The notes under the pieces are model-generated. The model saw only the letters and a list, made by a program, of their open reading frames with translations. It was not told where the DNA came from and did not search any database. Of a stretch of DNA of 64,000 nucleotides, positions 29,211 to 43,320 are shown piece by piece. Position 1 is the first letter of the stretch. Every line of letters begins with the position of its first letter. The position numbers and the translations under genes are program-made. The stretch comes from Dehalococcoidia bacterium. GTDB lineage: Bacteria; Chloroflexota; Dehalococcoidia; UBA2979. Location of the stretch: positions 3,241,962 to 3,305,961 of the forward strand of contig OZ244720.1 of assembly GCA_965219085.1 (NCBI GenBank), read 5' to 3'.

Positions 29211-30056
29211 ATGCCGCCACTTGATCCTCGATCGACCTTCGGCGCCCCGCCCGCTGTACGCGCTCCGGGCCCGCTGCGCCGCGCCGCCCGCCGCTGGCTG
29301 CCGCGGCGCCTGCGTGCCGAGGTCGCGATCGCCCGCCGGCATCTGCGCGACCGTCGCGGCCGCGACGCGTTCGCCACGCGCCGCGGCGACCCCTCGGCCT
29401 TCCCGCATCGCTTCGAGGGCTACGCGTTGCCGATGATCATCTACCCCGGCCAGGAGCACCTCGCCCAGGGCAAGCGCCACAACCAGCGCTTGCTGGCCCA
29501 GGCGCTGGACGGCGTGCGCGTCGAGCCGGGCGAGGTGCTGTCGCTGTGGCGCTGCGCGGGGCGGCCGAGCGCGCGCCGCGGCTACCTGCCCGGCGCGGCC
29601 ATCGTCGCCGGCGAGCTCACCAGCGAGGACGGCGGCGCCACCTGCCAGCTCTCGACCGTGCTCTACAACGCCGGCCTGCTCGCCGGCCTCGACGTCGTCG
29701 AGCGCCACGCCCACTCGGTCGACGTGTACGGCGAGGCGCGCTACTTCGAGCCGGGGCGCGACGCGACCATCGAGTACGGCGTGCTCGACGTGCGCTTCCG
29801 CAACCCCCACCCGTTCGCCGTGCTGCTCGAGCTCAGGGCCGACGACGACCGCGTCGCCGCCGCGTTCCGTGCGCCGGTCGGCGACCTCCCGGCCGTCGCG
29901 ATTACGGCGGAGCGGTTGCCTGTCGACGGGGGTGCGTGGCGGGCGCGCACGTTGCGCACGATCACCCCACCAGGCACCCCACCAGGCACCCCGCCGGGCA
30001 GCGAGTCACGCCGCGAGGACCTCGGCTGGTCGGTCTACCGCGCAGGCGACAGCTAG
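29211..30056 (+). CDS. VanW-family protein
   Basis: LDGVRVEPGEVLS, GGATCQLSTVLYNA, VERHAHS, DATIEYGVLDVRFRN; start uncertain. Confidence 0.85.
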   Translation: MPPLDPRSTFGAPPAVRAPGPLRRAARRWLPRRLRAEVAIARRHLRDRRGRDAFATRRGDPSAFPHRFEGYALPMIIYPGQEHLAQGKRHNQRLLAQALDGVRVEPGEVLSLWRCAGRPSARRGYLPGAAIVAGELTSEDGGATCQLSTVLYNAGLLAGLDVVERHAHSVDVYGEARYFEPGRDATIEYGVLDVRFRNPHPFAVLLELRADDDRVAAAFRAPVGDLPAVAITAERLPVDGGAWRARTLRTITPPGTPPGTPPGSESRREDLGWSVYRAGDS

Positions 30057-30268
30057 AGTCGCACTTCAGCGACGGCGTACGGGCCCAGGCTGCCCCTGAG
30101 CGTCCGGGCCGCTACAATCGCCCCGGCGCCGCACGGTGCGGCGCCGCAATCGACCCGCCCGTCCCGGGCCTTTCTGTGCGTCCCGCCCCGCGGCGGATGC
30201 CCCACATCCACGGAGATGGCGGGGTACGCCCCGCGGCCGCGGAGGCGCGGCCGCACGAGGTAACAACG

Positions 30269-31777
30269 ATGACCGAAGCCCCCCTGGGCGAACACCCCCT
30301 CGAACCGATCTTTCACCCGCGCTCGATCGCGATCGTCGGGGTCTCGCGCGATGGCCCCGGGCGGCGCCGGAGCGGCTTCCTGGCATCGCTCATGGAGCAC
30401 GGCTACCACGAGTCGCGGCCGCTCTACCCCGTCAACCCCAACGCCGACACCATCGCCGGGCTGCGCGCCTACCCCTCCATCCGCGACATCGAGGGACCGG
30501 TCGACCACGTGATCTCGTCCGTGCCGGCGTCGGTCGCCCCCTCGCTCGTCGACGACGCGATCGCCAAGGGCGTGCGCTCGATTCACTTCTACACCGCCGG
30601 CTTCGCCGAGATCGGCGACCCCGAGCTGGCGCGCCAGCAGCACGAAATCATCGGCCGCGCCACGGCCGCGGGCATCCGCGTGCTCGGCCCCAACTGCATG
30701 GGGCTCTACGTGCCGTCCGAGCAGATCTCGTTCCAGGGCGAGTTCCCGACCGAGCCGGGCAACGTGATGGTGATCTCGCAGTCCGGCGGCAACTCGATGG
30801 ACATCGTCCACGGCCTCGCCAAGCGCGGCGTGCGCTTCTCGCGCGCCGTCTCCTTCGGCAACGGCGAGGACATCGACGCCGCCGACCTCTTCGACTACGC
30901 CGCCGCCGACCCCGGCAGCGAGTACGTCGTCGCCTACCTCGAGAGCTCGGCGCGCGGCCGCCAGATGTTCGAGGCGCTCCAGCGCTGCGCGCGCGTCAAG
31001 CCGACGATCGTGCTCAAGGGCGGCATGACCGGCGCGGGCGGCCGCGCCGCCAGCTCGCACACCGGCGCGCTGGCCGGCTCGCGCGAGGTCTTCGAGGCGA
31101 TGTGCCGCCAGACCGGCGCCATGCTCGCCGAGACGATGGAGGAGCTGCACGACCTGCTCATCGGCGTCACCACCAACACGCGCCTCGTGCGCGGCGAGCG
31201 CGCGCTGCTGCTCGGCGGCGGGGGCGGCTTCTCGGTGCTTGCCGCCGACGTGATCGCCCGCTCCGGCCTCGACCTGCCGCTGCTCGACGACGAGACGACC
31301 GCACGGCTGCGCGAGCTGATGCCGGTGGCCGGCAACTCGATCCGCAACCCGATCGACGCCAGCCACTTCCAGACCGGTGACGACCGCGGCGAGGCCTACC
31401 GCACCCTGCTCGACATCGGCGCGCATGTGCGCGACCTCGACGTGCTGCTCGTGATGGCGGGAGGCCCGCCCGACTTCTCTCCGCGCTCTCTCGCCGAGCA
31501 GCGCGACCCGGACTACGCGCGCGAGCGCGACGAGCGCCGCCGCCGCTCGGACCGCCGCGCGATCGAGCAGCTGATCGAGCTGCAGGAGTCGAGCCACCAC
31601 CCCGTGGTCGCGCTGCGCCGCGACCGGATGGGCCAGCCCGAGCTCGACGACGACGTGCTGACCGAGGCCTACGCGCACGGCCTCGGCGTCTTCCACACCG
31701 TCCAGCGCGCCGCGCGCACGGTCGCGCGGCTGCTGGAGTGGCGGCGCCAGCGCGAGGGCCTGCCCGAGCTGTTCTAG
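30269..31777 (+). CDS. Acyl-CoA synthetase (NDP-forming) alpha-type CoA-binding protein
   Basis: PRSIAIVG, YPVNP, GPNCMG, SQSGG, SFGN, ASSHTGALAG (phospho-His), NPID. Confidence 0.9.
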   Translation: MTEAPLGEHPLEPIFHPRSIAIVGVSRDGPGRRRSGFLASLMEHGYHESRPLYPVNPNADTIAGLRAYPSIRDIEGPVDHVISSVPASVAPSLVDDAIAKGVRSIHFYTAGFAEIGDPELARQQHEIIGRATAAGIRVLGPNCMGLYVPSEQISFQGEFPTEPGNVMVISQSGGNSMDIVHGLAKRGVRFSRAVSFGNGEDIDAADLFDYAAADPGSEYVVAYLESSARGRQMFEALQRCARVKPTIVLKGGMTGAGGRAASSHTGALAGSREVFEAMCRQTGAMLAETMEELHDLLIGVTTNTRLVRGERALLLGGGGGFSVLAADVIARSGLDLPLLDDETTARLRELMPVAGNSIRNPIDASHFQTGDDRGEAYRTLLDIGAHVRDLDVLLVMAGGPPDFSPRSLAEQRDPDYARERDERRRRSDRRAIEQLIELQESSHHPVVALRRDRMGQPELDDDVLTEAYAHGLGVFHTVQRAARTVARLLEWRRQREGLPELF

Positions 31778-31799
31778 CGCCGGCCGACGGCCTCGGCCA

Positions 31800-32459
31800 T
31801 CAGTTGCAGAACGGCAGCCGGAGCTCCTCGAAGTCGTTCGAGGGCGCAGCACGCAACGCGGGCGGGATGCACCCGGCGAGGTCGTTGCCCGCGAGACTGA
31901 TGACCCCGAGCGACCAGAGGTTGCCGAGTTCGGGCGGGATCGGCCCGTACAGCTCGTTGCCGTCGAGATGCAGGCGCCGCAGAGATCGGAGGTTCCCGAG
32001 TTCCGCCGGGATCCACCCGGTCAACTCGTTTGACCCGAGATACAGGCGCTGCAGCGCGGTGAGGTCGCCCAGTTCCGGTGGGAGCGGCCCGCGCAAGCGG
32101 TTGCCGGCGAGCCGCAGGCTCGTGACCCGTCCCGCGCTGTTCGTGGAGACCCCGTACCACTCCCCGACGGGCCGGTCGCTCAGCCAGTGCGTCGCGTCCA
32201 ACCAGGACTCGCCCCTGGTCGCCTCGTAGAGCGCCACCAGCGCGGCCCGGTCCGGCGAGGGGCCGCGAACGGTCGTCGATGGCCGCGCCGTGCCATTGGC
32301 ATACCCGCGGGCGGCCGGGGCTGCGGTCTCCGTCGGGGCCGGTTCAACGACGAACGCCTCGCCGTCTCCTCCACGCGCGTCCCAGGCCGCGATCACGATG
32401 ATGACCACGGCGCCGAGCGCCGCGAGGACCGTTGCCGCACCCACTGCACGCGTTGACAT
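31800..32459 (-). CDS. Membrane-anchored leucine-rich repeat protein (plant-type LRR)
   Basis: TM, DRAALVALYEAT...W.GV cap, repeats L.G.IP.ELGNL..L..L.L..N. Confidence 0.88.
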   Translation of the reverse strand: MSTRAVGAATVLAALGAVVIIVIAAWDARGGDGEAFVVEPAPTETAAPAARGYANGTARPSTTVRGPSPDRAALVALYEATRGESWLDATHWLSDRPVGEWYGVSTNSAGRVTSLRLAGNRLRGPLPPELGDLTALQRLYLGSNELTGWIPAELGNLRSLRRLHLDGNELYGPIPPELGNLWSLGVISLAGNDLAGCIPPALRAAPSNDFEELRLPFCN

Positions 32460-33132
32460 CGTCGCGCCACCCTAGCAGGGTGCTGAAAAAGGCGCGGCCA
32501 TCTGGCAGGATAGCGAAGGCGGCGGGGGCGTAGCCTGGGAGGCAGCCCCGTGCGAGGCGACGCTGAGCGTCAGACCAACATGTTGCTGGCGGTGACGCCG
32601 GACTCCTTCATCCCGGACGACCACCCGATCCGACGCATCAAGCCGATCGTCGATGCAGCGCTGCAGCGGCTCTCGCCGCTCTTCGGCACGATGTACGCAA
32701 CGAGCGGGCGGCCCTCGATCCCGCCCGAGCACCTGCTCAAGGCGAGCCTGCTGATCGCGCTCTACTCGATCCGCAGCGAGCGCCAGTTCAGCGAGCGGCT
32801 GCGCTACGACCTGCTCTTCAAGTGGTTCTTGGACCTCAACATCTCAGACGCGCCGTTCGACGCCTCGACCTTCTCCAAGAACCGCGAGCGCCTGCTCGCA
32901 GCCGATGTCGCGCGCGCCTTCTTCGCCGAGGTGGTGGCCGAGGCAAAGCGCCGCCGGCTGCTCTCGGCCGAGCACTTCACGGTGGACGGGACGCTGCTCG
33001 AGGCGTGGGCGTCGCTCAAGAGATGGCATGAGGGCCGGTCTCTTCCTCAAGGGGGATACTCGCCCCCGAAACAGCGGCCTCGATGGGCCAGAACGGCTCT
33101 TTGCGGAGCTTTGACGAGGTAGGAGACCGGCC

Positions 33133-34221
33133 GTGCAGCAGGATACCGCAACGACGTGGAGCATTGAGGGCAAGGAAGGGTCAGGGGTCACCATCGGCCT
33201 CGACGTGGGCGACCGCTACACCCACGTCCACGCCCTCGGCGCCGGCGGGGAGGTGGTACGTGAGAGGCGCGTCCGCACCACGACGGCAGCGCTGGGCATG
33301 GTGCTGACCGGCCTCCCCCCATCGCGGGTCGTGATCGAGGCGGGGCCGCGCTCGCCGTGGCTGAGCCGCCTCATGGCGGACCTCGGCCACGAGGTGGTCG
33401 TCGCCAACCCGCGCCAGGTCGCGCTGATCGCCGGCAGCCAGCGCAAGACCGACCGGCTCGACGCCGAGTGGCTGGCGCGGCTGGGGCGCTTCGACCCCCA
33501 GTTGCTCGCCCCGATCCGCCACCGCAGCGAGGCGAGCCAGCACGACCTCGCCGTGGTGCGCGCCCGCGACGCGCTGGTGCGCTCGCGGACGCTGCTCATC
33601 AACCACGTGCGCGGGGCCGTCAAGGCCTGCGGAGCCGCGTTGCCGTCGTGCACGGCCGAGGCGTTCCACCGCAAGACGGCGGACCACATCCCCGACGGGC
33701 TGCGCCCGGCGCTGCTGCCGCTGGTGGAGGCGATCGGCGAGCTGACCGCGCGCATCGCGGCGGCCGGCCGCGAGATCGAGGCGTTGTGCGAGGCTCACTC
33801 CGAGACCGCGGCGCTGCGCCAGGTCACGGGCGTCGGGCCGATCACCGCGCTCACGTTCGTGCTGACGATCGAGGATCCTGGGCGCTTCCCGAAGAACCGC
33901 GAGGTCGGCGCCTACCTCGGGCTCGTGCCGAGGCAGCGCGACTCGGGCGAGCGCACGCCGCAACTCGGCATCGGCAAGAGCGGCGATCCGCACCTGCGGC
34001 GGCTGCTGGTGCAGGCCGTGCACTACATCCTCGGCCCCTTCGGGCCCGACACCGACCTGCGCCGCTGGGGTGAGCGCTACACCGCTACGGGGGCCGGTAA
34101 CGCGAAGAAGCGCGCCGTCGTGGGCGTCGCGAGGCGGCTGGCGGTGCTGCTGCTCGCGCTGTGGAAGACCGGCGAGGTCTACGAGCCGTTGCGCGACGCC
34201 GCGGCGCAGGAGGCCGCGTAG
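33133..34221 (+). CDS. IS110/IS1111 DEDD recombinase (transposase)
   Basis: IGLDVG, VIEAG, KTDRLDA (DEDD), GVGPITA, YLGLVPRQRDSG (catalytic Ser), AVVGVARRLA. Confidence 0.95.
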   Translation: MQQDTATTWSIEGKEGSGVTIGLDVGDRYTHVHALGAGGEVVRERRVRTTTAALGMVLTGLPPSRVVIEAGPRSPWLSRLMADLGHEVVVANPRQVALIAGSQRKTDRLDAEWLARLGRFDPQLLAPIRHRSEASQHDLAVVRARDALVRSRTLLINHVRGAVKACGAALPSCTAEAFHRKTADHIPDGLRPALLPLVEAIGELTARIAAAGREIEALCEAHSETAALRQVTGVGPITALTFVLTIEDPGRFPKNREVGAYLGLVPRQRDSGERTPQLGIGKSGDPHLRRLLVQAVHYILGPFGPDTDLRRWGERYTATGAGNAKKRAVVGVARRLAVLLLALWKTGEVYEPLRDAAAQEAA

Positions 34222-34557
34222 CAAGGCGCGGCGCCGAAGCAACCGACCAGGAGAGCGAGACTGAGACGGACCTGGGAGGAGGCCCAGCAAACCAACCACT
34301 GCACGTGATGCCGGGCAACGGGCGACTGCGAGGCGGTAGCGGTCCAACAAGGACGTTCAAGAGTTGGCAGCGCCCCCTGGAAGCAGGATGTGCCTTCATG
34401 CACCGGGCCCGATACGTGGCCCATCAAAGAGTGCGGATAGAAGCTCGGCACAGGCTCCGTCAGGGGACATCACGAGCGGATCGGCCCCGATGTCGAGGAG
34501 CGCCACGCCCCGAGGAGGAGGCCGCCACGTCGGCCTTGCAGAAAGACCGTCCCTCAT
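34222..34557 (+). ncRNA. Putative seek/bridge RNA of the IS1111-like element (ends approximate)
   Basis: Guide segments GGCGGTAGC and GTTCAAGAG match the two target flanks; ATAGAAG matches the donor junction; all sit in stem-flanked loops. Confidence 0.75.
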
Positions 34558-34714
34558 AGAAGCTACCGCCCGCGCGACGAGCAGGAGCCACCCCTGGGCG
34601 GACGCAACCCGGATGTCGACTTCCGCGGGCGGCGGCGCAGCCGCGATACGCATAGTTCCGGCACGGACCCGGAGGCGCGGCTGTACACGAAGACACCCCC
34701 AGGACGCTAAGGGG

Positions 34715-35938
34715 TCAAGCAGCGAGGTCCTCGTGGGTGTAACGGTGTCCCCAGGCGGTCGTCTCGTCGTAGGGCAAGCGGCGCTTCAGGCAGCCATGTA
34801 GGTAGCCGACGAGACGGTTGCCGAGGGCGCGGAGCGCCTGGTGGTGGAGGTCGCCCGCGGCGCGCCGCCGATCGTAGAACTCGCGGCAGCCGGGGCTGGC
34901 CTGCAGGGAGCACAGCGCCCACTGGTCGACTGCGTCGTAGAGGCGCCGGTTGCGGACGAAGCGGGCTTTCACGGTGTGCTTGCGGCCGGATGCTACCGTC
35001 AGCGGCGACGTGCCGGCGTAGTTCCTGCGGGACTTCGCCGACTCGTAGCGTTCGGGGTCATCCCCGAACTCGCCAAGCACCCGGGCGCCGAGGACCACGC
35101 CGAGACCGGGCAGGGAACGGTAGATACCGGCGTCCGGGTGCTGCTCAAAATGGCTCGCGAGCTCGGCCTCGAGCTCCTTGATCTGACGGTTGATCTCGCC
35201 GATCACCCTCATTGCCGCACTGGTGCTCGCGGCGAATGCCTTGCTCACCGCGGGCGGAGCCTCGAGCTGCGGTGAGCGCAGCGCGTCGCGGACCTCGGCG
35301 GCGCGCCGCTCGATGTTGCGCCGGCGGCCGCCGCGGCGCAGCGCGGAGCGGATCTGGGTGATGCTCAGCCGCGCCGCCTCGCGCGGGCCAGGCGCTGTCG
35401 CCAGCACGCCCACCGCGTCGTCGTGCGCGAGGTCGGGGAAGGCCTCCAGCGCACCCGGAAAGTACTCCCTGAGCGCGTTGCGCAGCCGGTTGGTCTGGCG
35501 GACGCGGTCCCAGATCAACTGCTGGTGGGCGCGGGCGAGGATGCGCACCGCGGCGGCTTCGTCGCTGTCGCCGGCGACCTCCCGGTGGTTGTGCCGGTCG
35601 GTGCGGACGAGGTCGGCGAGCAGCTTCGCGTCGCCGGCGTCGGACTTGGCGCCGCCGACGTGGTGGCGGTCGCGGTAACGCGACGCCGAGCGCGGGTTGA
35701 TGGCGTAGACGTGGTAGCCGGCCGCGAGCAGTGCCGCGACCCAGGGGCCGCGGTCCGTCTCGATGCCGACGATCACCTCACCCGGCCCTGAGGCGTACCC
35801 GGCGACCAGTCCGTGCAGGGCAGTGATGCCCTCCACCCCTTCGGGCAGACGCCGGGCGGCGAGCCGCTCGCCCGCGTCGTTCATGAGATGGACGTCGTGG
35901 TGGTCTTCGGACCAGTCATCGCCCAGGTACAAGGCCAT
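34715..35938 (-). CDS. IS110 DEDD recombinase (transposase)
   Basis: LGDDWS, GIETD, KSDAGDA, SLPGLG, YAGTSPLTVASG, ALRALGNRLV. Confidence 0.95.
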   Translation of the reverse strand: MALYLGDDWSEDHHDVHLMNDAGERLAARRLPEGVEGITALHGLVAGYASGPGEVIVGIETDRGPWVAALLAAGYHVYAINPRSASRYRDRHHVGGAKSDAGDAKLLADLVRTDRHNHREVAGDSDEAAAVRILARAHQQLIWDRVRQTNRLRNALREYFPGALEAFPDLAHDDAVGVLATAPGPREAARLSITQIRSALRRGGRRRNIERRAAEVRDALRSPQLEAPPAVSKAFAASTSAAMRVIGEINRQIKELEAELASHFEQHPDAGIYRSLPGLGVVLGARVLGEFGDDPERYESAKSRRNYAGTSPLTVASGRKHTVKARFVRNRRLYDAVDQWALCSLQASPGCREFYDRRRAAGDLHHQALRALGNRLVGYLHGCLKRRLPYDETTAWGHRYTHEDLAA

Positions 35939-35985
35939 CGTGTTTCAGTTCCTCTCCCGCTTCGCGCTGCTCGGTGCGACCCGGC

Positions 35986-36188
35986 GGGTTGGTTCCTGCG
36001 ACGGCCTAATGGATCAGTGCTCGATGGCACGACACCCCATGAGTGCTGCAGAACAACCCGGAATACCAGCAGGGGCTCGGTCTTCGTGAAGCGGTCCAGA
36101 AGCCGCAGGGATCAGCTGAGAGCTCACCGGCTGGCAGGGTCCAGAACCAGTCTGCCAGAGAACCTCTGGCCGCTGGTCGGGCCCCATT
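35986..36188 (-). ncRNA. Putative bridge RNA with target- and donor-binding loops (ends approximate)
   Basis: Four guide segments (36107-36115, 36082-36088, 36031-36038, 36006-36012) match the target and circle junctions in the IS621 order. Confidence 0.82.
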
Positions 36189-36811
36189 AGGGGTCGGGGC
36201 AGACGGCGAAGCTCAGCTACATGGGCCATCTGCTCACCGAGAACCGTCACGGTCTGGTGCTGGACGTGGAGTTGACCGAGGCGAACGGGTACGCCGAGCG
36301 CGAGGCGGCGGTCACGATGCTGGAGCGCAGCGTGAGCGGCTGCGGGACGCTGGGCGCCGACCGCGGCTACGACACGCGCGGCTTCGTGGCGGCGCTGCGC
36401 GCTCGCGGCGTGACGCCGCACGTGGCGCAGCACGACCGCGGCCGCCGCAGCGCCGTGGATGGGCGCACCACGCGGCATCGCGGCTACAGGCAGAGTCAGA
36501 AGCGGCGCAAGATCGTGGAGCAGGTCTTCGGCTGGATGAAGACCGTGGGCGGCGGGCGCAAGCTGCGCTTCGTGGGCCGCGAGCGCAACCGCTGTTGGCT
36601 GGAGCTCACCGCCGCCGCCTACAACCTCGTGCGCATGGCCACGCTCGAGACCGCCGCGGCGTAGGCGCAGTGCGCCCTCCGCCCCGCCAGGGAGCCCTCA
36701 GAGGCCCCCGGGGGCAGGTCAGGAGGCCACGATCACGAACCCGGAGGCGGCTTGAAGCCGCCTCTCGCCACTCCGAGACCCCGGAAGGCGCTTCTTCAGC
36801 ACCCTGCTAGC

Positions 36812-37859
36812 TGTAGTGTCCCGGGACGTTGTTTACAGGCGTGAGGCGGGGACAGCCCCGCCGATACCGCCGTGCGGTCGGCGAGCATTGTAGCGATAGA
36901 GCCAGCGCGGGAGCACGTGGAGGCGTTCGGCGTTGGAGCGGTATGGCCGGGCGTACGCCCATTCGTTCTGCAGGATCTGGATGAAGCGCTCGGCCTTGCC
37001 GTTCGTCTGCGGCCGGTAGGGTCGGGTGTGCAGCAGCTCCACGCCCGCGGCGGCGGCCGTGCTGCGGAAGCTGCGCGCGACGGTGTAGGCCTTGGCGTTG
37101 TCGGTCAGCACGCGCCTGACGCGCACGCCGCGCCGGCTGAACGCCGCGAGCGCCTGCTCGAGGAAGGCACTACAGCTCGCGGCCCGCTCGTCGGGCAGGG
37201 CGGCGACGTACGCGTAGCGGCTGTGGTCGTCCACGGCGACGTGTAGGTACTCAAGGCCCAGCGACCGTCCCCGCTGCGGCCCGGAGCGCGTCTCGGCGAA
37301 GCCGGGTGCGATGCGCTTACCGCCACCCTCGGGGATGCGCCCCAGCTTCTTCACGTCGATGTGCAGCAGGTCGCCGGGGGCTGGGTGCTCGTAGCGGACC
37401 GTCTCGCGGGTGACACGATGCAACCGGTCGAGGCGGTTGAGGCCAAAGCGCCTGAGCACGGCGTAGACCGTGGAACGGGCGAGCCCGAGCGCCCAGGCGA
37501 TGCGATGCGGCCCGAAGCCCGCACTGCGGCGCACGGCGCAGATGCGTTGCTCCAGCTCGGGTGCGGTGCGCCGGGGGTTCGAGCGCGGCGCCGAGGTGCG
37601 GTCCTCGAGCCCGTCCGCTCCTGCCTCGCGGAAGCGCCGCACCCACTTCGCGACCGTTGGGCGCGAGACCGGGAAGCGACGGGCGACCTCGGCCTGCGGC
37701 CAGCCGTCCTCCACCTCCCGGACCAACTCCAACCGGGTGACCGGCGTCAGACGCGCGTTACGATGTGCCACGAGAGGCTCCTCCCCTGCTACTGGTGCTT
37801 GCAACACACACAGCAGCAGGCGGAGCCCCTCACCTGCAACAACCTACGTGGGAACTACA
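36812..37859 (-). mobile_element. IS481-family insertion sequence
   Basis: TGTAGT...ACTACA ends with imperfect IRs; 6-bp duplication GCTAGC at 36806-36811 and 37860-37865. Confidence 0.9.
36833..37771 (-). CDS. IS481 transposase
   Basis: HRNARLTP, LHIDVKK, VDDHSR, LTDNA, PQTNGKAERF; GTG start after GGAGGAG. Confidence 0.95.
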   Translation of the reverse strand: MAHRNARLTPVTRLELVREVEDGWPQAEVARRFPVSRPTVAKWVRRFREAGADGLEDRTSAPRSNPRRTAPELEQRICAVRRSAGFGPHRIAWALGLARSTVYAVLRRFGLNRLDRLHRVTRETVRYEHPAPGDLLHIDVKKLGRIPEGGGKRIAPGFAETRSGPQRGRSLGLEYLHVAVDDHSRYAYVAALPDERAASCSAFLEQALAAFSRRGVRVRRVLTDNAKAYTVARSFRSTAAAAGVELLHTRPYRPQTNGKAERFIQILQNEWAYARPYRSNAERLHVLPRWLYRYNARRPHGGIGGAVPASRL

Positions 37860-37899
37860 GCTAGCGGCGTCCGAGGCTGAGCCGCGCTCGCGGGGCTGC

Positions 37900-38047
37900 G
37901 CAGCCGCAGCGGCGTGGGCCAGCCGTACGGGCACGCTTGCGCGAACTCCCGCGCCTGCCTTGTCGCTGCAATCATCGACGACCGCACGGCGGCGTCGGCA
38001 GGGTCGTCCCCGCCTCCCGCCTGTACACAACCTCCGTGGGAACTACA
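37900..38047 (+). pseudogene. Degenerate IS481 3'-end relic in the opposite orientation
   Basis: Encodes LPRLPCRCNHRRPHGGVGRVVPASRL versus LPRWLYRYNARRPHGGIGGAVPASRL in the intact copy; ends ACAACCTCCGTGGGAACTACA. Left boundary approximate. Confidence 0.7.
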
Positions 38048-38768
38048 CCTGGGCCGTGGAGCGCCCGCGGACCGCCGATCGTGCCGCCAGCACGGCCAGC
38101 GCTGCGACGGCCACGATCGCCCCGACGACGAGTCCCGTGGGCGGCCCGCTCGGCGGTTGACTGTGTGCGCTGAGCACGCGCGCTTCCGCGGCAGTGATGT
38201 CGAGCTCCCACACCGCCTCGCCGGCCTCGACGCGATCGGCGTTGTGTTCCGTCAACTTGCCCGGCAACGAGAGGCGCACGGTGTACGAGAGGCCCTGGTC
38301 CAGCGCATCCAGGGCTTGCGGATCATCCAGACCGACCAGGTCGTCGCGCGGTGGTTCCACGACGAGCTCAAAGCGCCATCCCTCGCCCTCGCGTTCGACC
38401 TGCAGCTGCTCGGCGGCCTGCCACACCTCGTCGACCCCGCCGAGGAATTCGACTATGCGCGTCATGTCGGGAACCGTGATGGTGAGGCGCTCTCCGCTGA
38501 ATCCGTCTTCCCGGTACTCCTCGACAATCGCACCTGGAATGTGGCGGATGTCACCGAGGAAACTCCCGTCGTCGTTTGCCGGTCCTCCGATCTCCACCAG
38601 CGCATCGATAAATTCGTCGCTCAGCGCCATGACCACCGCGACAGCGCCCGAGCCGTCGTCATCCACGGTGAACGAGATTTCGACGCGGATGCAGCCGGTG
38701 AGCACGACGGCGCACAGCGCGAGCAACAGGGCGGTCCACCGTGAGCACCTGCGGGGGACAGACGTCAT
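38043..38768 (-). CDS. LppM/DUF3153-like lipoprotein with C-terminal TM
   Basis: Lipobox LTGC, ISFTVDDDGSG, LSLPGKLTEHNAD, C-terminal hydrophobic anchor. Confidence 0.75.
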   Translation of the reverse strand: MTSVPRRCSRWTALLLALCAVVLTGCIRVEISFTVDDDGSGAVAVVMALSDEFIDALVEIGGPANDDGSFLGDIRHIPGAIVEEYREDGFSGERLTITVPDMTRIVEFLGGVDEVWQAAEQLQVEREGEGWRFELVVEPPRDDLVGLDDPQALDALDQGLSYTVRLSLPGKLTEHNADRVEAGEAVWELDITAAEARVLSAHSQPPSGPPTGLVVGAIVAVAALAVLAARSAVRGRSTAQV

Positions 38769-38791
38769 AATGGTATGACAGCAGGAGATTG

Positions 38792-40624
38792 TTAGCGCCG
38801 CCCGAACGAGCGCCGCACCTGCTCGCTGCTGAGCCGCAGCAGCGTGGGGCGGCCGTGCGGGCACGTCTGCGGGTGCTCGCACGCCTCGAGCTGCCGCAGC
38901 AGCTCGCGCTGCTGCTCCCCTGCCAGCAGGTCGCCGGCGCGCACCGCCGAGCGGCACGCGAGGCTCGCCGCGGCGCGCTCCGGCCCCGACAGCCGCTCCT
39001 CCGCCTCCATGCGGTCGAGCAGGTCGCGCAGCGCCTGGGCGGGGTCGCGCCCGGCCAGCGCGGCCGGCACGGCGCGCACGATCAGCGCCGCCCCGTCCGT
39101 CGGCTCCAGCACGAAGCCGAGCGCCGCCAGCGCCTCCGCCTCCTCGGCGGCCAGCGCCGCCTGCGCCGCGCCGAGCGGCGCCAGCACGGCCTCCAGCAGC
39201 GGCTGCGAGGACGCCTCGCCGCGCGCCAGGCGCGCCCGCACCTGCTCGTAGCGCACACGCTCGTGCGCGGCGTGCTGGTCGACCAGGTAGAGCCCGTCGG
39301 GCGCCTCGGCCACCAGGAACGCCTCGTCGAACTGCCCGAGCGGGCGCAGCGCGGGCAGCCGCTCGGCGAGCGGCAGCGCCGCCTCGTCGCGCGGCTCGCC
39401 GGCCACTGCGGGCCGCGTCGAGGCATCGAACGGCGACGCCGGCCGCGCCGAGGCCAGCATGGCGCGCGCCTCGGCTGCGGCGCCTGCCCGGGCGGGAGGC
39501 TCAAACACCGGCGTTGCGAACGCAGGCGCGGCGGCCCCTGCCAGCGCGCCTCGCACCGCCGCCGTCACCGCCTGCGCCACGGCGCGCGCCTCGCGGAACC
39601 GCACCTCGGCCTTCGCCGGGTGCACGTTGACGTCGACCGCCGCGGGGTCGACCTCGACGCGCACGAGGCCGACCGGGTGGCGCGCGGACGGCAGCAGCCC
39701 TTCGTAGGCGCGCTCGGCGGCGAACGCCAGCGCGCGGTCGCTCACCGCCCGCCCGTTGACGACGACGTGCAGCGCCGAGCGGTTGCCGCGGTGCCGCTCC
39801 GGCGGTCCCACCAGCCCGCGCACCACGACCGGCCCGTGCTCGCCCGCGGCGGGTTCGTGATGGTCGAACGTGATCAGCGACGCGGCGAGGCCGTCGTCGT
39901 AGACCGCCGCCCACGCCGCGCGCTCCCCGCCCGCGCCGGGCGAGGCGAGCAGCACGCGGCCCTCGCTCTCGAGCCTGAGCGCCACCTCCGGCCGCGCCAG
40001 CGCGTAGCCGGCGACCACCTGCGCCACGGCGCGCGCCTCGGCCCGCGCGCTGCGCAGGAAGCGCCGCCTGGCCGGCAGCGCCGCGAACAGCCCGCGCACC
40101 TCGAAGGTGGTCCCCGGCGCCGCCGCCGCCGCGCCCTGCGGCAGCGCCCGCCCGTCCCGGAAGCGCGCCACCGCCGCCGCCGACTCGCCGCCCACGCGCG
40201 TCGTGCAGGTCACGTCGGCCGCCGCCGCGATCGCCGCCAGCGCCTCGCCGCGGAACCCCAGCGTGCGCACCGCGAACAGCTCCTCCGCCGCGCGCAGCTT
40301 CGAGGTCGCGTGCCGCTCGAAGGCGTCGGCGAGCTGCTCCGGTTCGATCCCGCGGCCGTCGTCGCGCACGCGGATGCGCTCCGCTCCGCCGCCCGCGATC
40401 GCCACCTCGATGCGCGCGGCGCCCGCGTCGAGCGCGTTCTCGAGCAGCTCCTTCACCACCGAGGCCGGGCGCTCGATCACCTCGCCTGCCGCGATCCGCG
40501 CCGCCACCTCCGGCGCCAGCACGCGGATCCGCGGCGCCCCGTCTGTTGCGGCCCCCGCGGGGTATCCCCGCGTCGAGGAGACTTCGGGGTATCCCCGCGT
40601 CCCGGAGACTTCTGTGGCCGTCAC
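38792..40624 (-). CDS. mutL: DNA mismatch repair endonuclease MutL
   Basis: IAAGEVIERPASVVKELLENALDAGA, GFRGEAL, DVNVHPAK, DQHAAHER, CPHGRP. Confidence 0.96.
   Translation of the reverse strand: MTATEVSGTRGYPEVSSTRGYPAGAATDGAPRIRVLAPEVAARIAAGEVIERPASVVKELLENALDAGAARIEVAIAGGGAERIRVRDDGRGIEPEQLADAFERHATSKLRAAEELFAVRTLGFRGEALAAIAAAADVTCTTRVGGESAAAVARFRDGRALPQGAAAAAPGTTFEVRGLFAALPARRRFLRSARAEARAVAQVVAGYALARPEVALRLESEGRVLLASPGAGGERAAWAAVYDDGLAASLITFDHHEPAAGEHGPVVVRGLVGPPERHRGNRSALHVVVNGRAVSDRALAFAAERAYEGLLPSARHPVGLVRVEVDPAAVDVNVHPAKAEVRFREARAVAQAVTAAVRGALAGAAAPAFATPVFEPPARAGAAAEARAMLASARPASPFDASTRPAVAGEPRDEAALPLAERLPALRPLGQFDEAFLVAEAPDGLYLVDQHAAHERVRYEQVRARLARGEASSQPLLEAVLAPLGAAQAALAAEEAEALAALGFVLEPTDGAALIVRAVPAALAGRDPAQALRDLLDRMEAEERLSGPERAAASLACRSAVRAGDLLAGEQQRELLRQLEACEHPQTCPHGRPTLLRLSSEQVRRSFGRR
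40558..40611. repeat. 27-bp tandem duplication (x2) in the 5' end of mutL
   Basis: CGGGGTATCCCCGCGTC(GA/CC)GGAGACTT twice, encoding EVS(G/S)TRGYP. Confidence 0.8.
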
Positions 40625-40626
40625 GC

Positions 40627-43320
40627 CTAGCCCTCGCGCCCGAGCCCGCGACGCGCCTCGGCGCGCAGCTCGTAGAGCCGCTGCAGCGCCTCGAGCGGGC
40701 TCAGCTCGTCGGGCTCGAGCCCCGCGACCGCCTCCGCGAGCGCGCGCTCCGCCGCGGACGCCGCCACCGGCAGCGCGAGCTGGGCCGGCGCGGCGGCCGC
40801 CCCGGGAGCACCGCCCCACGCGGCGCCGCCCTCGCCCGGCCGGCCGGCCTCGCCCCCTTCCAGCTGCGCGAGCAGCTCGCGGGCGCGCGCCACCACGGCG
40901 CGCGGCAGCCCCGCCAGCGCGGCGACGTGCACCCCGTAGGCGCGGTCGGCCGCGCCCTCGCTGATGCGATGCAGGAACACCACCTCGCCTGCGCGCTCGG
41001 CGACGGCGACCGAGCGGTTGGCGACGCGCGGCAGCAGCCCGGCCAGCGCCGTCAGCTCGCGGTAGTGCGTCGCGAAGAGCGTGCGCGGCGTCCCGCCGGG
41101 GCGGTGGTGCAGCGCCTCCACCACCGCGCGCGCGATCGCCAGTCCGTCGCCCGTCGAGGTGCCGCGCCCGACCTCGTCGAGCACCACCAGCGAGCGCTCC
41201 GTCGCGCGGCGCAGGATCTCCGCCGTCTCCACCATCTCGCGCATGAACGTCGAACGCCCCGCCGCCAGCTCGTCGCTGGCGCCGACGCGCGTGAAGACGC
41301 GGTCGGCCATGCCGATCTCGGCCCGCTCCGCCGGCACGTAGCAGCCGGCCTGCGCCATCAGCACGATCAGCGCCGTCTGCCGCAGGTACGTCGACTTCCC
41401 GCCCATGTTCGGGCCCGTCAGCACCACGATGTCCGGCGCCGCCCCGCCCAGTTCGCAGTCGTTGGGCACGAACGCGCCCGGTTCCATGCGCCGCTCGACC
41501 ACCGGGTGCCGGCCGCCCGCGATCGCGATCGGCCCCGCAGGGCGCAGCACGGGCCGCACGTAGCCGTGCTCAGACGCCACCTCGGCCAGCGCCGCGGCGA
41601 CGTCGAGCCGCGCCAGCGCCCGTGCAGCGCGCTCCACGGCCGCGCCGCAGGCCGCGACCTGCGCGCACAGCCGCTCCAGCGCCGCGCGCTCCGCCCCGGC
41701 GAGCTCCTCGCGCGCACCGAGAATGCGGTCCTCGAGCTCCGAGAGCGGCGCATGGCGGTAGCGCTGCGCCCCCGCCAGCGTCTGGCGCGGCTCGTAGTCG
41801 TCCGGCGCGCGATCCGCCTGCGAGCGCGGCAGCTCGAGGTAGTACCCGAACACGCGGTGATAGCCGACCTTGAGCGCCCCGAGCCCCGTGCGTGCCCGCT
41901 CCTGGGCCTCGAGCGCCGTGAGCGCCCCGCGCGCGTCCTCGGCGAGCGCGCGCAGCTCGTCCACCTCCGGCGCGAAGCCGGGGCGCAGCGACGCCCCGTC
42001 GCCGGCCTCCGCGGGCGGCTCCCCGGCGAGCCCCGCCGCCAGCGCCGCGTGCGCCTCGCCCGCGCCCGCGAGGTCCGCGGCGAGCGCGTCGAGCGCCCCG
42101 GTCCCCGTGGCGCGCGCCTGCCCCGCCGCCTCCGGCAGCGCGCCCAGCGCCGCGCGCAGCTGCGCGAGCTGGCGCGGCCCCGCGCTGCCCGCGCGCACCC
42201 GCCCCAGCAGCCGCTCGGGGTCCGGCAGCCCGCGCAGCACCCGCCTCAGCGCCGCGCGCTCCAGCGGCGCCTCCAGCCACGCCTGCACCTCGTCGAGCCG
42301 CCGCCCGGCCTCGGCGGCGTCGCGCCCGGGGCGCGCCAGCCGCGCGCGCAGCAGCCGCCCGCCCGGCCCCGTGCGCGTGCGGTCCAGCACCGCGATCAGC
42401 GCCGCGTCCGGCCCCGCCGGCGACTCGAACAGCTCCAGCGTGCGCACCGTCTGCGGGTCCAGCTCGAGGTGGTCGCCGGAGGCGATCACGCGCGGCTCGC
42501 GCAGGTTGCGCAGCGCCTGCGGCCAGCCCTCGGCGAGATACGCCAGCAGCGCCCCCGCCGCCGCCACGGCCGGCTCCATCCCGCGCAGCCCGAAGCCCTC
42601 GACGTCCGCGACGCCGTACTGCCCGCACAGCGCGCGGGCCGCCTCGCCCGGGGCGAACTGCCGCGCCGGCCGCTCCGTGCGCCGCGCCGCCCCGGCCGCG
42701 CCCTCCGGCAGCGTGTCCTCGGCCCCGTGCGCCCCGTGCGCCGCCTCGGGCACGAGCATCTCACGCGGCGCGCGCCGCGCCAGCTCCCCGGCGAGCGCGG
42801 CGCCCTCCACGACCATGCACTCCAGCTCGCCCGTGGTGACGTCGCACGCCGCGAGCCCGAAGCGCTCGCCGCCAACCCCGTTGGCCCCACCGACAGCGGC
42901 ATCGCTGGCCGCGCCGTTGGCAGCGCCGGCCGGCGCGACCGCGACGAGCCAGTTATGTCCGCCCGCCGGGAGCAGCGCGCCCTCCTCGACGGTCCCCGGC
43001 GTGACGACGCGCACAACGCGACGCTCGACGAGGCTCCGCCCGTCGGGCTCGGAGGTCTGCTCGGCGAGCGCGACGCGGTGGCCCGCCCCAACGAGCTGGT
43101 CGAGGTAGCGTTCGAGCGCGTGGTGCGGCACCCCGGCCATCGGCACGCGGCCCTCGGCCTTGCCGAGCGGCCGCGAGGTGAGCGCGATTCCGAGCGTCTC
43201 CGCCAGGACCGCGGCGTCTGCGTCGAACGCCTCATAGAAATCGCCCATGCGGAACAGCAGCAGCGCGTCCGGGTGCTGCGCCTTGAGCGCGAGGTACTGT
43301 CTGCGGACGGGGGTGGACAC
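40627..43320 (-). CDS. mutS: DNA mismatch repair protein MutS
   Basis: FRMGDFYE, TGPNMGGKSTYLRQ, STFMREM, DEVGRGTST, FATHY. Confidence 0.97.
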   Translation of the reverse strand: MSTPVRRQYLALKAQHPDALLLFRMGDFYEAFDADAAVLAETLGIALTSRPLGKAEGRVPMAGVPHHALERYLDQLVGAGHRVALAEQTSEPDGRSLVERRVVRVVTPGTVEEGALLPAGGHNWLVAVAPAGAANGAASDAAVGGANGVGGERFGLAACDVTTGELECMVVEGAALAGELARRAPREMLVPEAAHGAHGAEDTLPEGAAGAARRTERPARQFAPGEAARALCGQYGVADVEGFGLRGMEPAVAAAGALLAYLAEGWPQALRNLREPRVIASGDHLELDPQTVRTLELFESPAGPDAALIAVLDRTRTGPGGRLLRARLARPGRDAAEAGRRLDEVQAWLEAPLERAALRRVLRGLPDPERLLGRVRAGSAGPRQLAQLRAALGALPEAAGQARATGTGALDALAADLAGAGEAHAALAAGLAGEPPAEAGDGASLRPGFAPEVDELRALAEDARGALTALEAQERARTGLGALKVGYHRVFGYYLELPRSQADRAPDDYEPRQTLAGAQRYRHAPLSELEDRILGAREELAGAERAALERLCAQVAACGAAVERAARALARLDVAAALAEVASEHGYVRPVLRPAGPIAIAGGRHPVVERRMEPGAFVPNDCELGGAAPDIVVLTGPNMGGKSTYLRQTALIVLMAQAGCYVPAERAEIGMADRVFTRVGASDELAAGRSTFMREMVETAEILRRATERSLVVLDEVGRGTSTGDGLAIARAVVEALHHRPGGTPRTLFATHYRELTALAGLLPRVANRSVAVAERAGEVVFLHRISEGAADRAYGVHVAALAGLPRAVVARARELLAQLEGGEAGRPGEGGAAWGGAPGAAAAPAQLALPVAASAAERALAEAVAGLEPDELSPLEALQRLYELRAEARRGLGREG

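Follow-up and report, generated by a model that had tools for sequence, protein, structure and literature searches.

Two IS110-family elements with predicted guides for two sites in the transposase gene of a multicopy IS5-family element

IS1384 is an insertion sequence (IS) of the IS5 family. Its repeats are a target of IS1383, an element of the IS110 family, and the repeats of Tn21 are likewise targeted by IS4321 and IS5075, so it has already been published that this family targets the ends of transposons (as cited in the reference lists of PMC11208160 and PMC11187229). Site-specific residence in another mobile unit is also found in the IS1111-attC group (ISKpn4, ISPst6 and ISPa25), as far as its accessible description goes. 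Furthermore, natural reprogramming between two relatives, ISEc11 and ISXne4, has been described under the seekRNA model (in the accessible part of Siddiquee et al. 2024, PMC11187229). Here we describe a locus from a Dehalococcoidia bacterium at which two IS110-family elements, which we call A and B, interrupt the transposase gene of one IS5-family element. (The locus lies in a stretch of 64,000 nucleotides, positions 3,241,962 to 3,305,961 of contig OZ244720.1; we refer to this whole stretch as the window and number positions from its first base. The genome is a single contig of 3.306 Mb and is labelled G000; other G numbers denote related genomes.) We consider it very likely that A and B are unrelated, apparently active RNA-guided IS whose guide loops are set to two short sites in the transposase gene of this multicopy IS5 element.

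The occupied IS5-family element spans positions 32476-36806 of the window, and its transposase gene, on the + strand, is in three pieces (...EAWASLK / SYRPRD...ARLYTK / GSGQTAK...). The first piece (32476-33020) contains the left terminal inverted repeat and the codons up to EAWASLK, and it matches Pfam DUF772. The second piece (34563-34692) is the 130 bp between A and B and contains the codons from SYRPRD to ARLYTK. The third piece (36191-36806), which matches Pfam DDE_Tnp_1, runs from GSGQTAK to a stop codon at 36664 and on through the right terminal inverted repeat. The element is flanked by CTAG on the left (32472-32475, the target duplication) and on the right (36807-36810), and every IS5 copy has (C/T/G)TAG on both sides. 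An empty copy of the element is 1293 bp long and encodes a transposase of 358 amino acids, which confirms both break points. This intact protein matches NCBIfam transpos_IS5_4 with 254 bits (the cut-off is 140), and the element has the other marks of the IS5 family as well: an IS5-type DDE transposase, terminal repeats of 19-20 nt, and a short duplication of a target that contains TA, with (C/T/G)TAG flanks in 12 copies.

Element B is inserted 130 bp beyond element A, on the opposite strand, in the same IS5 transposase gene. An earlier account of the window that was made from its letters alone (the sequence-only reading) had described two divergent IS110-family elements in opposite orientations, 130 bp apart in the IS5 open reading frame (ORF), and both are present there, with small corrections to the coordinates. 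The insertion points that it proposed, WASLK/SY and ARLYTK/GSG, match the intact 358-amino-acid protein of the empty copy. It had also placed the two elements in different subgroups, and we agree: A has a long non-coding region 3' of its gene and subterminal repeats, while B has its long non-coding region 5' of its gene. The two transposases are just 29% identical over 161 amino acids.

Element A is an IS1111-type IS on the + strand (33021-34562), with an AG core at both junctions (33021-33022 and 34561-34562), and it has the same junctions in 5 copies. The insert is 1540 bp (33021-34560 or, equivalently, 33023-34562), and the empty site in intact IS5 copies reads CTCAAG-AG-CTACC. The transposase gene of A (33133-34221, 362 amino acids) is open in 5 of 5 copies. 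The protein contains the DEDD_Tnp_IS110 (PF01548) and Transposase_20 (PF02371) domains and matches the NCBIfam model for IS110 family RNA-guided transposases with 238 bits (cut-off 140). In the accessible part of the family definition (PMC11187229), IS1111 elements have subterminal inverted repeats of 11-13 bp with extensions of 7 bp on the left and 3 bp on the right. A has 13-nt subterminal repeats (33028-33040 and 34545-34557; 12 of 13 positions are complementary), with a 7-nt extension before the left repeat (33021-33027) and a 3-nt extension after the right repeat (34558-34560). The layout of A is also that of IS1111, with 341 nt of non-coding sequence after the stop codon as against 112 nt before the start codon.

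Element B is an IS110-type IS on the - strand (34693-36190; 1498 bp, including one copy of its CT core, which reads AG on the + strand), and it has the same junctions in 5 IS5 copies. Its transposase (34715-35938, 407 amino acids) contains PF01548 (128 bits) and PF02371, matches the NCBIfam model for IS110 family RNA-guided transposases with 191.6 bits (cut-off 140), and has a weak match to the chains of the IS621 recombinase (E = 5.6e-8). B has the layout of IS110 elements, with about 250 nt of non-coding sequence upstream of the gene and 22 nt downstream.

We compared each part of the locus to the whole genome with BLAST and found two fragments and 14 IS5 loci with a length of 547 bp or more. 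Six of the copies are uninterrupted (five are 100% identical and one is 98.7% identical); three contain both A and B (one of these also contains an IS1380 element); two contain B only (one also contains an IS256-like element); and two contain A only (one is truncated after A). The remaining copy, an IS5 relative that is 85% alike, has a diverged copy of A (86%) at the same site. All five of the near-identical copies of A (at least 99.7% identical) are at the same nucleotide position of IS5 and have the same junctions, and five of the six copies of B (99.9-100% identical) are at the same nucleotide position of IS5. The sixth copy of B is in non-IS DNA downstream of an unrelated ORF, at a site with the same core and, on just one side, the same five flanking bases. 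(Such an insertion is termed a half-match insertion in the accessible part of a 2026 preprint.) The sequence-only reading had suggested that the two elements might specialise on IS5, and that this idea should be given up if most copies turned out to lie in non-IS5 sequence. With 5 of 5 copies of A and 5 of 6 copies of B at these sites, most copies do not lie elsewhere, and the suggested specialisation is supported. The recurrence of these two insertion points is not due to chance.

The IS5 backbones that carry the A and B insertions differ by 2-6%. The backbones of the two A-only copies are 94.0% alike, yet they contain the same A with a 926-bp stretch that is 100% identical. Since identical inserts are found in backbones that are only 94.0% alike, A and its 926-bp passenger moved by themselves. 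Similarly, copies of B that are 100% identical are found in backbones that are 95.4-95.7% alike. Because near-identical inserts sit on backbones that differ by 2-6%, the insertions of A and B into IS5 copies were independent events. In contrast, the backbones of the three copies with both A and B share 99.5-99.8% identity among themselves and no more than 98.1% with any other copy, and their neighbours are unrelated; this clade does not include any empty or singly occupied copy. As the sequence-only reading had anticipated, the 4.3-kb composite does occur at other CTAG sites: the three copies are at unrelated loci and each has its own (C/G)TAG flanks. Most likely, the composite transposed as a unit, at least twice, with transposase from intact copies. 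The five intact and 100% identical IS5 copies, with their 358-amino-acid ORF, are a possible source of this transposase.

A simpler history would be that A and B were each inserted once, long ago, into a single IS5 element and that since then only the composite has been copied. The tight clade of three composites (99.5-99.8% identical, with neither empty nor singly occupied members) was probably copied as a unit and is what this history would predict. However, the A-only and B-only copies have backbones that are 94-98% alike with inserts that are 99.7-100% identical; one copy of B lies outside of IS5, at a site that shares the core and five flanking bases; a diverged copy of A is at the same site in an IS5 that is 85% alike; and paralogues with other guides are found at fixed sites of other IS. 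Given these observations, a single insertion of each element seems most improbable to us.

The 926-bp stretch begins after position 1525 of A (G000:C1:1972909-1973834, which is 110-1035 of locus L056, and 1859038-1859963). It contains an ORF-less group II intron of about 0.9 kb (Rfam group-II-D1D4-4, 95.1 bits; Intron_gpII, 44.8 bits). The intron is on the opposite strand in the right end of A, in two copies, so that there are three layers: an intron in A in IS5.

The 3' non-coding region of A is predicted to encode a seekRNA or bridge-like RNA, with a target-binding loop at 34320-34375 (+ strand). In the predicted fold, two single-stranded segments flank a small hairpin (34341-34355) and are closed by a stem of 9-10 bp (34320-34329 with 34367-34375). 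The 5' guide (34332-34340), when reverse-complemented, reads as the second core base followed by 8 bases of the right flank, and the 3' guide (34356-34363) repeats 5 bases of the left flank plus AG. Thus, in silico, the top-strand complement comes first (5') and the bottom-strand match second, which is the order of segments in IS1111 seekRNAs (in the accessible part of PMC11187229). A putative donor guide (34437-34443, + strand) has the same sequence as the right end plus the core. The same stretch is the break point of tandem right-end duplications in paralogues of A. (These partial duplications, of up to four units, follow three A-family copies, at G000:C1:2850006-2850740, or locus L054; at 893322-893397, or locus L055; and at 1261336-1261392. 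Their joints fall within the element, at sequences that look like the right end followed by the core. They resemble the local duplications of IS110 loci described in the accessible part of a 2026 preprint.)

We aligned the target-binding loops of 13 A-family variants from 6 genomes and found that the stems and the AG are invariant and that both guide segments are hypervariable. (Because the stems never vary, they offer no covariation evidence of their own.) We scored the matches between guides and flanks by eye. In all 11 of the variants whose right flank is known, 6-9 contiguous nt of the 5' segment are complementary to the core and right flank. Nine of the 13 variants have a 3' segment that is identical to the left flank plus AG for 7 nt or more; in the other four, the identity extends over 6, 5, 4, and 4 nt. 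By simple arithmetic, the chance of a seven-base match in a fixed register is about 6 in 100,000.

The predicted bridge-RNA region of B is at 35939-36188 (- strand), with left and right target guides at 36114-36107 and 36088-36082, and left and right donor guides at 36038-36031 and 36012-36006. The upstream regions of 11 B-family elements from 9 genomes have a mean identity of 85% and share an outer stem, an inner hairpin, and two loop segments; 7 base pairs in the alignment have compensatory changes on both sides. The donor loop is invariant and matches both the right end plus core and the complement of the core plus left end. The target loop, on the other hand, follows the flanks in the variants from G000, G013, G017, and G022: the left guide matches at 8/8 and 9/9 positions in two variants, and the right guide matches at 6-8 of 8 positions in four. 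By alignment, then, B has the two loops of a bridge RNA, one for the target and one for the donor, with a shared core dinucleotide. (An earlier candidate for the left guide, at position 51 on B's own strand, was dropped because this stretch is conserved among relatives with other targets.) That each element carries guides for its own site had been proposed in the sequence-only reading, and our data bear this out: guide segments can be located in both A and B, and they co-vary with the targets across natural variants.

Single-sequence folds of the two non-coding regions were no more stable than those of shuffled sequences (z of -0.24 and 0.14), so the predicted guide structures of A and B rest on the alignments. 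A search of 32400-38000 against Rfam did not identify any bridge RNA or seekRNA family. It did give a match to Ms_AS-4 (63.9 bits with a gathering threshold of 50; 35033-35114, + strand), which is antisense within the gene of B. We take this match to be conserved IS110 coding sequence and probably not a separate RNA.

We propose the following mechanism. From what is known about the family, A and B would each excise as a circle, and one loop of the non-coding RNA would pair with the joined ends of the element while the other loop would pair with the target. For A, target pairing would involve 9 nt complementary to the right flank and 7 nt that repeat the left flank with the AG core; for B, it would involve 6/8 and 7/7 nt around the CT core. 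The DEDD recombinase would then insert the element at the core dinucleotide. In this way, A and B would pass from IS5 copy to IS5 copy and break the IS5 transposase, and because the target exists only in IS5 copies, host genes would be spared. A broken IS5 that retains both of its ends could still be moved by the transposase of intact copies, which would take A and B along to a new location. For the relatives of A and B in the genus, we propose the same scheme, with loops set to other mobile elements.

The free target of A occurs 6 times in the genome as a 16-mer, 7 times as a 14-mer, and 8 times as a 12-mer, and all of these occurrences are inside IS5 copies. In contrast, the cognate 16-mer of B has no free copy in the genome, and in each of the seven close IS5 copies without B, the B site is a variant one. 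The variant could be an escape from targeting, or these copies could simply belong to a different sublineage. In the contigs of sequencing runs X1 and X11, we found a join across the B site (window 34690-36189) that skips 1498 bases with a 2-base overlap. An unoccupied cognate B site therefore exists in samples X1 and X11. Among the joints listed for the contigs of four public runs, none crosses the A site.

These patterns of occupancy raise the question of whether A and B might benefit the host, as a domesticated or tolerated RNA-guided brake on IS5. A and/or B break 7 of the 13 IS5 copies that retain both sites; every IS5 copy with a cognate B site is occupied; and the intact IS5 lineage has a variant B site, which resembles target escape. 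But A and B look like selfish elements, in that their genes and ends are intact and each is present in several identical copies, and the five youngest IS5 copies are untouched despite having a perfect A site. Also, the broken IS5 still spreads as composites, and the genome is crowded with IS (the DEDD transposases alone account for 27 matches). A host defence would be a non-mobile locus that lowers the spread of mobile elements, whereas A and B are multicopy elements with intact ends and genes, and five intact IS5 copies persist alongside them. A host-serving role in the control of transposons is not supported, and we consider a brake of this kind to be quite unlikely.

We searched 40 related genomes and found the A family in 6 of them and the B family in 8. 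Within G000 itself, all 11 A-family copies are inside or beside other mobile elements: 6 are in IS5, 3 are in an IS1380 gene (...RLTH/SARRW), 1 is in an IS3 gene (...YNTKRPH/SS), and 1 is about 40 nt upstream of another IS110 gene. In other genomes, A-family variants are found in an IS21 gene, in an ISNCY gene that is split at profile position 192/193, and 17 nt upstream of an ISNCY start codon. Other variants are in the donor loop of a B-type element, at a palindrome about 150 nt upstream of an IS110 gene, and 25-35 nt from a match to group II intron domains D1-D4. In addition, a subfamily that is 74% identical to A (in G012, G013, G015, and G017) targets the last 7 nt of IS5-type terminal repeats; the right flank is of this kind in 8 of the 8 copies examined. 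The exceptions to mobile-element targets in the A family are a peptidase M16 gene and one target to which we assigned no identity. In the B family, the variant in G022 is inserted at codons 2-3 of an ISNCY transposase gene (L058, G022:C1:2084984-2089204). This site is about 22 nt from the A-family insertion site in G004, G012, and G013. After IS5, ISNCY is a second IS on which the A and B lineages converge, but here they do so in different genomes.

We noticed several other features of the IS110-like elements in these genomes. The 27 matches to DEDD transposases mentioned above are all within this 3.3-Mb genome. For the other eight of them, we looked at the BLAST context: two pairs of IS110-type elements are contained in IS1380 copies, near position 580 (1081255-1085579 and 3172964-3176858), and others adjoin a 1185-bp repeat with about 15 copies. 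In G013, seven copies with IS21 guides (L002, L009, L023, L029, L031, L032, and L036) have IS21 sequence on the right, group II intron-adjacent sequence on the left, and an altered left end. These seven copies look like a repeated hybrid unit.

The prevalence of mobile elements among the targets might have another cause. Repeats may be the only targets that allow a site-specific element to multiply, so that what we see would be survivorship, with no parasitic strategy and no further benefit or cost. Most relatives of B in the genus are at REP-like (repetitive extragenic palindromic) sequences, one A variant is at a palindrome upstream of an IS110 gene, another is in a host gene, and repeats in general are known targets of the family (in the accessible part of PMC11208160). 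This account is compatible with our explanation for A and B rather than opposed to it. Taken alone, though, it leaves unexplained why so many targets are in conserved coding motifs and why the composites continue to transpose. We regard it as a serious possibility, if a somewhat improbable one.

A broader reading of the same data is that these elements form a genus-wide network of "parasites of parasites," in which the loops of two RNA-guided IS lineages have been turned again and again towards mobile elements, with guides borrowed in trans (which would account for the two elements at sites that do not fit their own guides), with escape of the targets by synonymous or conservative changes (as in the variant B site of the intact IS5 lineage), and with the ends of the host IS ferrying the hyperparasites. 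The targets of this network would include conserved coding motifs of IS5, IS1380, IS3, IS21, and ISNCY; IS5-type terminal repeats; sites beside group II introns; and the guide-RNA regions of rival IS110 elements. We put this forward tentatively, with a little less than even confidence.

Returning to our explanation for A and B at the IS5 sites, several observations weigh against it. First, eight free A targets are unoccupied, including those in all five of the youngest IS5 copies (100% identical and intact). Second, the fit between guides and targets is imperfect: B's own right guide matches at 7/7 positions and its left guide at only 6/8, and three of the 13 A variants have a weak match of the 3' guide (4-5 contiguous nt). 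Third, a diverged copy of A (G000, 340394) is at the IS5 site and has IS1380-type guides, and a copy in G013 (L033) has IS21-type guides and sits at a palindrome site. For these two guide-mismatched elements, either guidance in trans by the RNA of a co-resident variant or recombination between paralogues must be invoked. (The RNA of a co-resident variant could have guided them because all of the variants share the same ends.) Fourth, targets are not always mobile elements: most relatives of B target the REP-like palindromes, which are not IS, and the A-family variant L044 interrupts the host's peptidase M16 gene. Fifth, the A and B sites are both unoccupied in 25 full-length IS5 homologues, among the matches listed, from six relatives (10 candidates per genome). 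Because both sites are empty in these homologues, the setting in IS5 coding sequence seems to be confined to this genome. Finally, both RNA guidance and movement are predicted here from assembled contigs, which is also the form of all 22 public runs.

The range that had been marked in the sequence-only reading, which ends at 37865, also takes in a separate IS481-type element that adjoins the CTAG of IS5. This element is at about 36811-37880 on the - strand, with a 324-amino-acid ORF at 36833-37807. In G013, the same type of IS481 element is found inside an IS5 copy, at a CTAG that was made by a base change at the A site. (This split IS5 copy had seemed to be a case of an occupied A site, which we rejected because the insert is the IS481-type element at the CTAG.) IS481-type and IS5 elements both seem to favour CTAG. 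The neighbouring ORFs look ordinary. On the other side of the locus, the ORF at 31800-32459 (- strand) encodes a leucine-rich-repeat protein (Pfam LRR families). A long ORF at 38792-40819 (- strand) encodes what we take, by eye, to be a MutL-type mismatch-repair protein. Across the profiled stretch of the window (30000-40000), the G+C content is about 63-80%.

In our view, an RNA-guided IS that lives in another IS, disables it, and travels with it is well supported as a real case. It implies that an RNA-guided IS can live almost wholly in mobile elements, at low cost to the host, with carriers that are disabled and still travel along. The A family may also be of practical use. Recombinases that use a bridge RNA or a seekRNA are now being developed into tools for genome writing, and at least 13 related elements with the same stems and ends, different pairs of guides, and known targets amount to a natural record of the guide sequences, guide lengths, and mismatches that work. 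This natural series also includes half-matched off-targets and tandem duplications of the ends. Furthermore, it becomes possible to test whether paralogues guide one another in trans and whether a parasitised IS escapes through changes in its target.

As to what is new here, the targeting of transposon ends is already known, and the targeting of coding sequence and of multiple families looks to be undescribed. In the literature that we searched, we found no description of an IS110 or IS1111 element that targets the coding sequence of a transposase, of two unrelated elements that converge on one gene, or of a radiation of guide variants over many families of mobile elements, although the supplementary target tables of PMC11187229 and PMC11208160 may bear on these points.

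Among the described systems, IS621 (Durrant et al. 2024, PMC11208160; Hiraizumi et al. 2024, PMC11208158) is the counterpart of B. Both have target and donor loops 5' of the gene, a CT core, and the same order of guides. The two proteins are distantly related and have low identity, the loops of B come from an alignment only, and the targets differ: REP sequences for IS621 and a codon pair of the IS5 transposase gene for B. For A, the counterparts are ISEc11 and ISXne4, which likewise have a short RNA from the 3' non-coding region (predicted in the case of A), a complement of the top strand that lies 5', and relatives with different loops in different targets, as far as the accessible part of that work describes them. 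There, the comparison is of one pair; here, it is of 13 loop variants in one genus, mostly with mobile-element targets, and A is known from its sequence. The IS1111-attC group also differs from A and B in that its target is the folded recombination site of gene cassettes and not a protein-coding motif. The IS1111-type elements at transposon ends have more in common with A: in their accessible descriptions, they have subterminal repeats with 7-nt and 3-nt extensions and they live inside transposons. Their targeting resembles that of A's 74%-identical relatives at IS5-type terminal repeats, whereas A itself targets coding sequence. Finally, IS1383 and IS1384 of Pseudomonas putida H (Muller, Lauf, and Herrmann 2001) likewise pair an IS110-family element with another IS as its target. 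As far as the accessible account of that system goes, the target of IS1383 is a terminal repeat and not a codon of the transposase, and a single element is matched to a single target, with no second one converging on it as A and B do on IS5.

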